Assembly (NCBI GenBank): GCA_030390025.1 | Contig: CM059432.1 | Span: 64,172,001-64,236,000, forward strand | Direction: 5' to 3' | From: Squalus acanthias | Taxonomy: Eukaryota | Length of the DNA stretch: 64,000 nucleotides | Part shown: piece after piece, positions 5,021 through 11,366 of the stretch | How the letters are laid out: the number at the start of each line of letters is the position of its first letter | How positions within the stretch are numbered: the first letter of the stretch is position 1 | The notes under the pieces: generated by a model | What the model was told of the DNA's origin: nothing | Database searches by the model: none | What the model saw: only the letters and a program-made list of their open reading frames with translations | Made by a program: the position numbers and the translations under genes

Positions 5021-5252
5021 AGGAACATAGGAACAGGAGTAGGCCATTTAGCCCCTCAAGCCTGTTCCACCATTCAGTGAGATCATGGCTGATCTATGAT
5101 CTAACTCCATATACTCGCCTTTGCCCCATATCCCTTAATACCTTTGGTTAACAAAAATCTATCAATGTCAGATTTAAAATTAACAATTGATCTAGCATCA
5201 ATTGTCGTTTGTGTAAGAGAGTTCCAAACATCTGCCCTTTGTGTGTAGAAGT
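5021..5252 (-). mobile_element. CR1 3' end, interrupted by the Gypsy element
   Basis: Tail aggaacataggaacagg and CR1 3' UTR; sequence resumes at 9721. Confidence 0.85.
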
Positions 5253-5461
5253 TGACATGAATCTTGTATGAAGTAATACTGGGTGGCCTACTGGTGGCGC
5301 TGTCCAGGGAGAGTATAAATACTCGGGCATGGGCCCAGTTTGCTTAGGACAATCCTCAACAGGAACTAGTGAAGGACACAACTAGATCTCCATGTTGGAA
5401 AACTGTTGATTAAAGCTTTGTTTAACGCTTAGACCAAGTGCCTAGTAGTTTTCTTACGTCA
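5253..5461 (+). repeat. 5' LTR
   Basis: Direct repeat of 9512-9720 with 5 substitutions by eye; TATAAATA near 5314 and ATTAAA at 5409. Confidence 0.97.
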
Positions 5462-5561
5462 ATTTAATCAACTGGACCTGCTCCACGCTCTGAGTGGTTT
5501 TGGGAACAGACGGCTACGACTCAAACGGTAGAAGGGAACCAGACGTAGTAATCAATCCATC

Positions 5562-6728
5562 ATGGAGAAACTACTCCAACCTGCCTGTCTCGACCTGGAC
5601 CCGAATTCACCTACAACTGCTAAGGTATGGAAACACTGGTATCGTACCTTCAGCAACTTCCTCAGGGTGTGTGGTGAAAATGTCTCTGATAAGTTAGAGA
5701 TACTTGCCAATTATGTATCCCCTTATGTGTTTGACTATATCGAAGACTGTGTAGACTATGACTCCGCTATCCGAATACTACAGCAACTATATGTTAAGGC
5801 CCCAAACAAAATTTTTGCTCGGCATCTACTGGCCACAACTCGACAACAACCCGGGGTATCACTTGACAAATTCCTTCAAAAGCTTCGCAGGCTCAGCAAA
5901 CATTGTAATCTCAAGGCTGTCTCAGCTGAGCAGTACCAAGAGGAGTTAATCGTGATTCTTTTATTAATGGAATTGCGTCTCCCTTCATACGCCAGCATCT
6001 GCTGGAGAATAAAACCCTCGAGTTACAAGTTGCCTATGACCAGGCATATTCTCTGGACTTGGCAAAAAAAAATGCAGATCCCTATCTTTTACCACGTGCA
6101 CGGACTGCTGCTATCACTTTTAGTGACTCCTCCGATAAGCCTCAGGCGGAAGCCCTCACTGATGACGACTCTATCCTAGCTGATGACGACCCTACCCTAG
6201 CGGAATGTGGCAATCTAAATGAAGTGTTTCTTTTGTGGAGGTGCATTTCATTATAGGAAATTTTGTCCTGCTCGTAATGCAATCTGCAATCATTGCAGTA
6301 AGAAAGGTCACTTCTCGAAAGTATGTCAGTCAAGAGCCTCTTCTAGGGTTACAGCTGCTCCCTATAAAACTGCTCCTCCCCCAAGAGCTACTACTAATGT
6401 TACAGCTGTCATCTATAAAACTACTCCTCCCCCAAGAGCCACTACTAATGTTACAGCCGTCAAGGATAAAACTGCCCCTCCTCCCATCACAGCTGTTTTT
6501 CCCCAAAGCCTGTCCCATGCAGCCACGAAGGTTTCGGTAAATGGGCACATTTTGAGTGCATTAATCGACTCATGCAGCTCTGACAGCTTCATCAGTGAGC
6601 AGGCTGTCAGTAAGTTAAAACTGCATATTTACCCCTCGGACAAGGAAATTGCAATGGCTCTGACGATACTGACCACTAACTCTTCCGGCTTTTGTCTTGT
6701 CGACCTTATTCTCAATGGCCGCACTTAA
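5562..6728 (+). pseudogene. gag: Gypsy gag plus aspartic protease, frameshifted
   Basis: TTRQQPGVSLDKFLQKLRRL gag motif; Zn knuckles CFFCGGAFH and CNHCSKKGHFSKVC; protease ALIDSCSSDSF; split across ORFs 5562-6179 and 6219-6728. Confidence 0.88.
6348..6486 (+). repeat. 51 bp in-frame tandem repeat, about 2.7 copies
   Basis: Units start at 6348, 6399 and 6450 (gttacagc...); encodes VTA..YKT.PPPRATTN. Confidence 0.9.
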
Positions 6729-6746
6729 TTCTCTACCCGGCTCGGG

Positions 6747-9471
6747 GTGCTCAAAAACCTATGCAGTGATGTGCTCCTGGGACAGGATTTCCAGAAACAA
6801 CACAAAAGACTCACTTTCGAGTTTGGAGGATCAAAGCCGGAGCTTACTATTTCCAAAGTACCGTTTTGTGCACTTTCGGCAGCTTTGCTCGACGAGCCCT
6901 CCTTGTTTGCCAATCTTTCCCCCCGATGTAAGCCCATAGCCACTAAATCACGACGTTTCAGCCAAGATGACCTATCCTTTATCGAGGCAGAGATCTCTTG
7001 CCTTCTAGCTGAGGGTATCATTGAGCCATGTTCATCTTCCTGGCGGGCTCAAGTCGTCGTTGTTAAAAATTCTCTGAAGCAACACAAGAAACGTCTTTGC
7101 ATCGATTACTCGCAAACTATTAACCAGTATACCGACTTGGATGCCTACCCACTACCACGCATCGATGACATGGTCAATAACCTTGCTAACTACAAGGTAT
7201 TTTCAACTTTTGACTTAAAGAGCGCATACCATCAAGTACCGTTAAAGGACTCTGACAAAAAGTATACGGCTTTTGAGGCCAATGGTCGGCTTTACCAGTT
7301 TTGTCGCCTTCCATTCGGGGTCACCAATGGGGTGGCCGTCTTTCAACGGGCAATGGATAGCCTAGTCAAACAGGAGAACTTAACAGACACTTTTCCATAT
7401 CTGGATAATATCACCATTGCTGGTCATGACCAGAAGGAGCATGATGCCAACCTCCAGAAATTTCTTGACGTTCTCCGTCGTCGCAACTTAACCTTAAATG
7501 AGTCCAAATCTGTGAAATCAGTACCATCAGTCAACATCCTTGGCTACTGGGTGGGCAATGGTGTCATCAAACCGGATCCGGAGCGACTTCATCCGCTTCA
7601 GGAGCTCCCTCCTCCTACGAATCTCAGCTCTCTTCGTCGGGCCCTTGGTATGTTCGCCTATTATGCGAAGTGGATACCTCACTTTTCCTACAAGATCCAG
7701 CCCCTGCTTCACGCAAAGTCATTTCCGTTGGAGGCGAGGGCTATTTCAGCTTTCGACCTCCTCAAGCAACAACTGAAAAAAGCCACGCTTCATTCCATCG
7801 ATGAAAATCTCCCTTTCGTGGTCGAGTGCGATGCATCGGAGGTGGCGATCTCGGCTACCTTGAATCAAGGCGGTCGACCCGTTGCATTTCTGTCTAGAAC
7901 TTTGCAGGGTAGCGAGCTCCATTATCCCCCTGTCGAGAAGGAGGCTACGGCTATCATCGAAGCAGTACGTAAATGGAGTCATTTTCTCGCTCGTCGCTAT
8001 TTCACGCTCATAACCGATCAGCGCTCGGTGGCCTTTATGCTGGATAATCGGAAACGCACTAAAATCAAGAATAACAAAATACAGCTCTGGAGGATGGAAT
8101 TGGCCGCCTTTGGCTACACCATACAGTATCGACCCGGCAAGGAGAATGTGGCCCCGGATACCCTCACGCGTGCATTCTGCTCTTCCATGTTAACTTCGAC
8201 TCTTGTGGATCTTCATACTGACTTATGCCATCCTGGCGTTACCCGTATGTTGCACTTTGTGCGATCTAAAAATCTCCCATTTTCGACGGAAGACGTGAAA
8301 AGAACATGCTCCACTTGTAGAATTTGCGCGGAAATAAAACCGCAATTCTTCCGTCCGTCGGATGGCTCGCTCATACACGCTATACAGCCTATGCAGCGAC
8401 TCAGCATTGACTTTAAAGGGCCATTGCCTTCCTCAACGCGAAACACCTACTTGCTTACTATGGTGGCTGAATATTCACGCTTTCCCTTTGCTTTCCCCTG
8501 TCCCAATATGCTTACTTCCAGTGATCAAATGCCTCGATCAGGTCTTTTCCCTTTGCGGTACGGCCAATTTCATCCACTCTGATCAGGGTCCCTCCTTCAT
8601 GTCAAGCGAACTCAAAAGTTATCTTTCCCAATGGGGAATCACCACAAGTAAAACGACACCGTATCATCCTATTGGAAACGGACAGGTTGAGAGATACAAC
8701 GCTATCATTTGGAACGCTGTTCGTCTTGCACTGAGGTCACACAATCTACCAGACCAGCAGTGGGAAACTATGCTCCCTTACGTGTTGCATTCCATCAGGT
8801 CTCTTCTTTCTACATCCACCAATGTTACTCCTCACGAACGATTCTTCGGGTTCCAGCGTCGCTCCACTCATGGGACGTCCCTACCATCATGGTTGGCAGC
8901 TCCTGGCTCCGTGCTGCTCCGAAGATTCGTCCGATCCTCCAAGAGTGATCCCCTCGTCGACGAGGTGGAACTAACGGATGTCAATCCTACATACGCGTAC
9001 GTGCGGTACCCTGATGGCCGGGAGTCCACAGTTTCACTTCGGGATCTGGCTCCCTGCCCAACCGGTCCCACAGACCCCATCAATAGAGAGATCCGTATTA
9101 ACGACGCCGATACTCCGCGCTCCTCCGAGGATGACGCCCTACCCGGGACATCAAGGGATCTGGCAGCTACTCCGCTGGATCAACCCGGGGAACAGAACGC
9201 TCCCCGTGGGATGGCCACCCGAAGCCAGGACGCCGGTCAATCACCGGCTACTGAGCAGGATGAAGCCAGCTCTGCGCCGGTGGGGACCCGCACCCGGAGC
9301 CACGATCTCCCCAGTTCCCCTCAGGTCGATCGAGGCGACACGGACTCTGCCAGCCTGCCGGTACGAACCAAGCGACACAGGGACCAAAACACAGTCCGAG
9401 GAGACGTGCCTTCCGGCCTCCAATGGAAATCCAAACGACTGCGTCTATTGTTAGTCCAGCTAATTCGGTAG
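6747..9471 (+). pseudogene. pol: Gypsy pol (RT, RNase H, integrase), frameshift near 8520
   Basis: RLCIDY, YPLPRI, DLKSAYHQ, LPFG, YLDN; ECDAS, EKEA, TDQ (RNase H); H..CHPG..C..C, IDFKGP, HSDQG, GNGQVERYN (IN). Confidence 0.95.
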
Positions 9472-9511
9472 AAGGAAGCCGCCGGACTTCCAATCTTTCA
9501 GGCGGGAAGAA

Positions 9512-9720
9512 TGACATGAATCTTGTATGAAGTAATACTGGGTGGCCTGCTGGTGGCGCTGTCCAGGGAGAGTATAAATACTCTGGCATGGGCCCAGTTT
9601 GCTTTGGACATTCCTCAACAGGAACTAGTGAAGGACACAACTAGATCTCCATGTTGGAAAACAGTTGATTAAAGCTTTGTTTAACGCTTAGACCAAGTGC
9701 CTAGTAGTTTTCTTACGTCA
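9512..9720 (+). repeat. 3' LTR
   Basis: Copy of 5253-5461, ends CA, followed by the TSD. Confidence 0.97.
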
Positions 9721-11366
9721 GAAGTGTTTCCTAATTTCACTCTTGAAAGGTCTGGCTCTAATTTTTAGACTATGCCCCCTAGTCCTAGAATCCCCAACCA
9801 GCGGAAATAGTTTCTCTCTATCTACCCTATCTGTTGTCCTTAATATCATGAAAACTTCAATCAGATCACCCCTTAACCTTCTAAATTCTAGGGAACACAA
9901 CCCTAATTAAGTACTTTCAAAAAAGTACTTAATTGGCTGTAAAGTGCTTTGAGACGTCCGGTGGTCATGAAAGGCGCTATATAAATGCAAATCTTTATTT
10001 CTTTCTAATTTGTGTAATCTCTCCTCTTAATTTAACCCTTGGAGTCCAGGTATCATTTTGATAAACCTTCCTCCAAGGCTAACACATCCTTCCTCAGGTG
10101 TGGTGCCCAGAACTGTTCACAGTACTCCAGGTGTGGTCTAACCAGGGTTTTGTACAGCTGCAGCATAATTTCTACCCCCTTATATTCTAGTTCTCTAGAT
10201 ATAAAGGCCAGCATTCCATTAGCCTTTTTGATTATTTTCTGTACCTGTTCATGACATTTTAATGATCTATTTACCTGAACCCCCAAGTCTCTTTGGACCG
10301 CCACTGTTTGTAACTTTTCACCATTTAGAAAGTACCCTGTTCTATCCTTTTTAGGTCCAAAAGTGGATGGCTTCACATTTGCCTACATTGAAATCCATTT
10401 GCCACAGTTTTACCCATTCACTTAACTATCAATATTCTTTTGTAATTTTATGCTATCATCTACATCGCCTACAATGCCGCCTATCTTTGTGTCATCGGCA
10501 AATTTGGATATGTGGCTTTCTATCGTTAATAAATATGGTGAATAATTGCGGCCCCTGTGAAACGCCACTAGTTACATCCTGCCAGTTAGAGTACCTGCTC
10601 ATTATCCCTACTCACTGTCTCCTGCCACTCAGTCAATTTCCTAACCAGATCAATAATTTGCCTTCAATTCCATGGGCTTCAACCTAAGGTAACAGTTTCT
10701 TATCAAATGCCTTCTGGAAGTCCATATAAATAACATCCATAGACATTCCCCTGTCCACTACTTTAATCACCTCTTCAAAAAAATTAAATCAGGTTCATCA
10801 GACATGACCTACCTTTTACAAATCCATGCTGGCTCTCTCTGATCAGCTGAAAATTTTCAAGCTGTTTTGTCACTCTATCTTTAGTTATTAATTATAGACA
10901 CTAGTAATTTCCCAACAACAGGTTAGGCTAACTGGTCTATAATTCCCTGGTTTCCCTCTCCCACCATTCTTAAACAGCAGAGTGACATGCGCAATTTTCC
11001 AATCTAAAGGAACGGTTCCTGAATTGAGAGAACTTTGGAAGATTATAGTTAGAGCATCTGCAATGTGCTCACCTACTTCCTTTGAAACCTTGGAATGGAA
11101 ACCATCTGGTCCTGGGGATTTGTCACTATTTAATGCCATTATTTTCTTCATTACTTTTGTTTTGCTTATGTTAATTTTGTTGAGTCCCTGTCCCTGATTC
11201 AATATTAGTTTCTTTGGGATGTCCGGCATGCTATCCTCTTCCTCTACTGTAAATACTGATGCAAAGTAATTATTCAACATGTCCGCCATTTTCCTTATTA
11301 TCATCGACAATATCACCGATATCAGTTTTCAAGGGGCCAACATTGCTCCTGACCACCCTCTTTTTC
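9721..11366 (-). mobile_element. CR1 ORF2 RT fragment, continuing 5021-5252
   Basis: [41 protein letters not shown]. Confidence 0.92.
9909..10004 (+). mobile_element. L2-type SINE/LINE 3' tail inserted in CR1
   Basis: aaggcgctatataaatgcaa tail (compare 28647-28670); ctaatt repeated at both flanks. Confidence 0.7.

Follow-up and report, generated by a model that had tools for sequence, protein, structure and literature searches.

A Gypsy retrotransposon in the Squalus acanthias genome, lying in the 64,000-nt stretch of DNA that we analyzed (the window), very probably primes reverse transcription with a short arm of its own LTR, whatever the exact geometry by which that arm becomes the primer. 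Judged from comparison of copies and relatives, its conserved self-priming signature and a mutation footprint at the end of the primer are real, and they support self-priming because arm and primer-binding site covary across families and because the footprint falls at the primer's end. This is apparently a second, independent case of self-priming, in an animal lineage with relatives in cnidarians, molluscs and crustaceans. To our knowledge, self-priming has been proven only for Tf1 of fission yeast (Schizosaccharomyces pombe), and it is regarded as characteristic of the Tf1/sushi chromoviruses.

The element spans 4,468 nt in total (Table 1), and its TG..CA LTRs, target-site duplication, polypurine tract and protease, reverse transcriptase (RT), RNase H, integrase order are those of Ty3/Gypsy. 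The two LTRs differ at five positions (5290, 5325, 5346, 5352 and 5404). Frameshifts and one stop disrupt gag-pol in the window copy; full-length relatives have single open reading frames of about 1,200 amino acids. The gag-protease region holds tandem repeats (three of 51 nt at 6331-6483 and two of 21 nt at 6154-6195), and the insertion site is itself a high-copy repeat, whose halves (5220-5252 and 9721-9760) are joined in other contigs. Near the element, a frame at 10053-10382 is presumably akin to the RT end of a CR1-type LINE. Contigs cover the LTR 10 to 100 times as deeply as the internal region, pointing to solo LTRs in large excess, and an Rfam search of 5200-5700 returned no match.

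Table 1. Features of the Gypsy element and their positions in the window
Feature	Position	Strand	Remarks
Target-site duplication GAAGT, 5 bp	5248-5252	+	Second copy at 9721-9725
5' LTR	5253-5461	+	209 nt, TG..CA
TATA box (TATAAATA)	5314-5321	+	Start predicted at about 5345-5346 from the usual spacing
Predicted hairpin P0, upstream of the arm	5356-5398	+	One compensatory pair in sister families, by eye
LTR arm, putative 12-nt self-primer	5403-5414	+	Contains ATTAAA (5409-5414); one mismatch in this copy
Second helix P2	5415-5439	+	5415-5418 paired with 5436-5439; begins at the first base past the arm
Primer-binding site	5463-5474	+	Complementary to the arm
Hypervariable base directly 3' of the duplex	5475	+	Putative end of plus-strand synthesis on the primer
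gag-pol	5562-9471	+	Two zinc knuckles, protease, RT with YLDN, RNase H, integrase
Polypurine tract	9500-9511	+	Immediately before the 3' LTR
3' LTR	9512-9720	+	209 nt; arm at 9662-9673 exactly complementary to the primer site

The initial annotation had reported that the primer site is complementary to the element's own LTR, and both a repeat search and LTR comparison confirmed it: the 12 nt that begin one base past the 5' LTR are the exact reverse complement of the arm in the 3' LTR, and the arm in the 5' LTR has a single mismatch to them, at 5404, one of the LTR differences, as had also been claimed. Its statements that the arm overlaps a poly(A) signal and lies about 90 nt past a TATA-like box were likewise borne out, with ATTAAA inside the arm and TATAAATA beginning 90 nt before the arm's AGT. 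The pairing is not due to chance, since none of 1,480 dinucleotide shuffles, scored under a looser search rule, reached 12 pairs (two reached 11). Of 40 copies of the family selected solely on gag similarity, 39 were scoreable, with perfect arm-site pairing in 27 and at most one mismatch in 35, and a pattern covering arm and primer site had 346 matches in the genome against none for the reversed control. Divergence in the 40 copies was 0.037 for the arm and 0.038 for the site, compared with 0.064-0.113 for the flanking LTR and leader, which differ from them in CpG content. No compensatory double change was found inside the window's own family (none at arm position 6), and there is thus no direct sign of the site being rewritten from the arm.

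Beyond the host, relatives identified by Gag come from crustaceans, a sea anemone, a snail and a coral. We fetched 50 loci from two collections and examined the 35 that had a gag start and upstream DNA; the other 15, of which 12 were among the 44 metagenome loci and 3 among the 6 from the genome collection, were set aside ahead of the count. Where the initial annotation had allowed that the complementarity might be lost in relatives, 28 of these 35 loci keep at least 11 pairs with no more than one mismatch; five of the remaining seven resemble decayed copies of passing families and two have no visible arm. A further Gag similarity search returned arthropod-rich Gag clusters only, and a search of viral contigs found no relatives of the element. 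Elements of the same animal lineage also occur in contigs filed as bacterial metagenome-assembled genomes, probably as host contamination. The host genome itself holds three further families, which we call B, C and D. Family B has 37 matches (77.5% identical), and family D, which is 79% identical to the window's element and very young, has 667 pattern matches (3 for the control) and LTR pairs that mostly show 0-3 differences over 215 nt.

Comparison of the pairing across families, a check that the initial annotation had proposed, revealed clear covariation. The 16 families compared have 12 different arms, and 175 of their 176 site positions form Watson-Crick pairs with the family's own arm, against 7.75 of 11 when arms are swapped between families; none of 100,000 permutations reached the own-arm pairing, in a test that ignores relatedness and, with each family represented by a copy showing the pair, gauges covariation and not prevalence. 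At least two pair types occur in 10 of the 11 columns, some of them only via one family with a shifted register. Families B and D are near-identical in U5, yet carry a compensatory change in both arm and site. As a control, we looked at 20 other Gypsy loci of the host; all seven with scoreable LTRs have a TGGCG-type site (one reads TGACG) and pair with themselves over at most 7 nt. These other host Gypsy families, with their TGGCG-type tRNA site, are only 26-33% identical in Pol. A candidate wobble-arm sub-lineage in family B was rejected: among 28 copies with both LTRs, 10 carry the change, and in nine of these it is present in only one LTR, like CpG decay. In the same family, 14 of 37 copies carry a change in the CpG of the 5' arm and only 2 of 37 in the complementary CpG of the primer site.

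A tRNA-primed Gypsy element has a TGG-led site 0-5 nt past the LTR that is complementary to a tRNA 3' end, and no such site is present here. The window copy does have a TGG at 5473, which the initial annotation had singled out as the place where a tRNA end might match. It lies 11 nt from the LTR end, reads TGA in 14 of 39 copies, is absent from families B, C and D, and has no match among 10 host tRNA sequences of four isotypes, leaving next to no probability that a tRNA 3' end primes there. If the primer were instead nt 1-24 of host tRNA-Thr, a 5' fragment with its end in the D-arm, the LTR arm would be a by-product. The host tRNA-Thr genes with AGT and TGT anticodons can form an 11-nt duplex with the site that includes one G.U, and the arm with its next two bases matches the D-loop at 12 of 13 positions (at least 11 in 10 of the 16 families), a likeness for which our chance estimate is below 1%, a rough and post hoc figure based on an assumed tRNA set size. 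This tRNA would, however, template a C at site position 6, seen in 0 of 180 sites; the invariant 12th pair suits the arm and not the tRNA; and in 10 of 16 families the best tRNA pairs over no more than 7 nt, against 13-17 for the own arm, in a comparison where the 10 host sequences served as stand-ins for the other families' hosts. We therefore consider tRNA-Thr very improbable as the present primer. It is possible that the tRNA-Thr D-loop was the origin of the arm. In this likeness to part of a tRNA, the arm recalls half-tRNA priming, in which the primer ends inside the tRNA (Osser and Bryco with tRNA-Met, Bianca with tRNA-Ile; PMC6317226), with the differences that those elements are Ty1/copia and that the site here tracks the element's own arm and not a tRNA.

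The second line of evidence for self-priming by the arm is a mutation footprint at the base directly past the duplex, found first in family B and tested afterwards in the window's family. In family B, where the duplex is 13 bp long, this base can be any of the four or be deleted; with 13 changes on trees of internal sequence it ranks first of 3,447 non-CpG internal sites, and it is the sole one of them with all four bases in at least two copies each. The equivalent site in the window's family, 5475, ranks first of 3,545 non-CpG internal sites, with 11 changes on the tree (mean 0.61), and has G in 22 copies and A in 12, both bases being found in all six LTR-defined lineages. The last base of the duplex is invariant in the window's family (34 of 34) and in family B (35 of 35). 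Family D has A in 26 and G in 6 of 32 copies at this site, on two backgrounds; here it is not the top site, as 15 of 3,584 sites match its variability in a set of 20 copies, and the copies appear to have recombined, which can inflate homoplasy. Read-through into the upstream LTR would be expected to leave a T, which occurs in no copy of the window's family and in 3 of 35 in family B. The variants are mostly not this T, and the primer therefore appears to have a clean 5' end at the first base of the arm. From these fossil copies we infer that plus-strand synthesis runs off the 5' end of the primer and that an untemplated base is added there. In Tf1, RT adds untemplated bases and the primer is copied into the cDNA end (PMC11042837, PMC3185545).

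Alongside the arm-site duplex, the predicted structure includes a second helix, P2. In 13 of 16 families it begins at the first base past the arm (null mean 4.1; 0 of 20,000 shuffles), which would place the junction of the helices at the putative cut site, between 5414 and 5415. Ten of the 16 families have the motif AGG(C/T) in U5. The predicted folds of 5403-5520 and 5345-5520 are not more stable than those of shuffled sequences (z of 0.87 and 0.12). In the Tf1 'pretzel', the sequences on both sides of the primer site pair with the LTR (bioRxiv 2022.12.06.519325); the second helix here is instead inside U5, and the predicted folds have no duplex with the leader side. The initial annotation had also raised the possibility of a hairpin that hides the 5' poly(A) signal. 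In favour of this being all that the duplex does, with priming achieved by other means, 10 of 16 families have a hexamer inside the arm, which in the window's LTR is the sole A(A/T)TAAA. The other six families keep the duplex although their arms lack the hexamer, so that poly(A) hiding can be at most secondary. No other primer site was seen, and the footprint would be left unexplained, which makes hiding alone extremely improbable.

Self-priming thus stood, on covariation and footprint, while for the variant route that the initial annotation had proposed, which we read as a primer internal to the RNA, the argument is the spacing from the TATA box. The distance from this box to the arm's AGT is 90, 92, 92 and 74 nt in the four host families; the sequence upstream of the box is GC-rich, and two of the four have a C-A step at +31/+32. 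A TATA-like word 20-45 nt before the arm is absent in 15 of the 16 families. In contigs aligned to the element, neither a transcript start nor a poly(A) end nor a usable step in depth was visible. The self-primer of Tf1 is the first 11 bases of its transcript (PMC7175516), and under the same strict geometry the arm would be the first 12-13 nt of the packaged transcript, freed by one cut, which is simpler than two. The arm is of the same length class as the 11 nt of Tf1, Tf2 is described as having alternative starts (PMC5341516), and by eye the non-host relatives have no obvious TATA box. In 13 of 16 families an AGT starts 11 nt ahead of the end of the arm. We take this AGT to resemble an initiator. 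Transcription usually starts at a purine that follows a pyrimidine, and the primer 5' end suggested by the footprint, a C after an A, would be an unusual start by this rule. Together with the conserved TATA box and the C-A steps, this makes the strict Tf1 geometry somewhat unlikely. Because the TATA box is 74-92 nt upstream, an internal piece released by two cuts is a more probable primer than the 5'-terminal bases of the RNA, and an internal primer is favoured by the promoter anatomy.

The same arm could also be supplied by the 3' repeat of the RNA or by a second RNA, with minus-strand synthesis continuing past the 5' arm up to the cap near 5346. A footprint of the first jump at the last base of the arm, expected if the 5' copy is cut, was sought and not found (5414 is unchanged in all 40 gag-picked copies), as this geometry would have it, and in the window's family three adjacent sites at the predicted start, 5344-5346, are variable. 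This cluster is, however, partly CpG, is not seen in family B, and corresponds in family D to one shared change in 2 of 19 copies, which look related. Moreover, the P2 partner lies 20-40 nt past the arm in several families and may be absent from the polyadenylated 3' end. On balance, we regard this origin of the primer as quite unlikely. A separate group of non-CpG positions within hairpin P0 (5369-5371, 5387-5389 and 5398) often differs between the two LTRs of one copy: at 5387 and 5398 this is so in 8-9 of 31 copies, compared with 0-1 of 31 for the lineage markers 5354 and 5357, and comparable sites exist at LTR positions 154 and 160 in family B and 145 in family D. Site-specific hypermutation, gene conversion and heteroduplex repair are candidate causes of these differences; a four-base-palindrome mutation context failed to account for the variable LTR sites upstream of the arm.

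For the preferred internal primer, we propose the following course of events. Transcription would start near 5346, about 57 nt upstream of the arm, as the promoter anatomy suggests. At the 5' end of the RNA, the arm would pair with the primer site in the predicted fold, their complementarity and covariation being seen in the sequence, as is the conserved start of P2 at the first base past the arm. The priming 3' end would come from cleavage between 5414 and 5415, probably performed by the RNase H of the element on the analogy of Tf1, and a second cut would make the 5' end at the C at 5403, to which plus-strand synthesis would copy according to the footprint. An untemplated base added at this end would sometimes become fixed at 5475 after the second strand transfer. 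An added benefit of the pairing may be that the 5' ATTAAA is masked. That a 12-nt internal piece of the RNA's 5' end, cut on both sides, is what primes reverse transcription seems to us close to an even call, falling just short of it. The literature that we consulted on self-priming contains no precedent for the second cut.

The element cannot readily be filed under Tf1/sushi, because its relatives lack a chromodomain and its RT, compared by eye, looks Mag-like. Neither a chromodomain nor a GPY/F-type SH3 domain (SH3_Tf2-1) was detected in any of six full-length relatives at E<=0.1 or in the integrase frame of the window. In the alignment of PMC2871265, again by eye, the RT spacing differs from that of Sushi, Maggy and Del, and the longer DY-x-x-(S/T)-(I/L)-N spacing is the same as in Mag and Jule. 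Two Gag zinc knuckles are likewise shared with the Mag lineage (Mag, Jule, Gulliver), under which Cigr-1 has been placed (PMC6238403 supplement). The element departs from that lineage in having YLDN instead of Y/F-x-DD, and this RT motif was not found in the full-text literature or the supplements searched. Profile searches of the host genome for a chromovirus reference found none. Matches to PF24626 in the host genome are retrovirus-like wherever a Pol match was seen (17 of 20), with a Y-V-D-D RT and some long open frames; profile searches of the host genome with PF16297 and PF03732 gave no match, and neither did their controls.

Among known systems, the closest in mechanism are the Tf1/sushi chromoviruses Tf1, Tf2, Tj1, Tosmo1-3 and Tcry1, which share with the element the lack of a tRNA site and an LTR-site complementarity of 11-13 nt, as well as an extra helix beside the duplex and untemplated additions at the primer copy (PMC7175516, PMC4600332, PMC11042837, bioRxiv 2022.12.06.519325). 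It differs from Tf1 in that its primer may be internal to the RNA. Self-priming is listed for Tf1/sushi, the Tcn1 clade and the Ty1/copia TAR lineage (PMC6317226). For the plant TAR lineage (Houba, Osr-1) and the Tcn1 clade, it was predicted in that source from an LTR-site complementarity of at least 10 nt, and the predicted case in TAR means that self-priming can arise outside Tf1/sushi. These elements belong to another superfamily or clade, in plants, and are known as self-priming by sequence prediction. Our literature search, which covered openly accessible papers, turned up no report of self-priming for a non-chromovirus animal Gypsy lineage, and term look-ups in the main text of mollusc, annelid, rotifer and placozoan surveys found primer sites undiscussed.

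A fuller scenario would be that a widespread non-chromovirus animal Gypsy lineage evolved self-priming independently, that its LTR captured or mimicked the tRNA-Thr D-loop, and that an internal primer of 12-13 nt is cut on both sides at the two-helix junction and masks the 5' poly(A) signal; taken as a whole, this is rather unlikely. If the D-loop capture were true, the element would be a fossil of a switch from tRNA-fragment priming to self-priming. A primer that is internal, or derived from a tRNA D-loop, would be a new route to a primer. As a second and apparently independent case, present in hundreds of copies in a 3.7-Gb host genome, the element shows that LTR retrotransposons can drop the tRNA primer repeatedly. 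Such elements are overlooked by tRNA-based annotation, and the primer-end footprint offers a means to map primer ends in fossil copies from sequence only. They would also escape control by 3' tRNA fragments.
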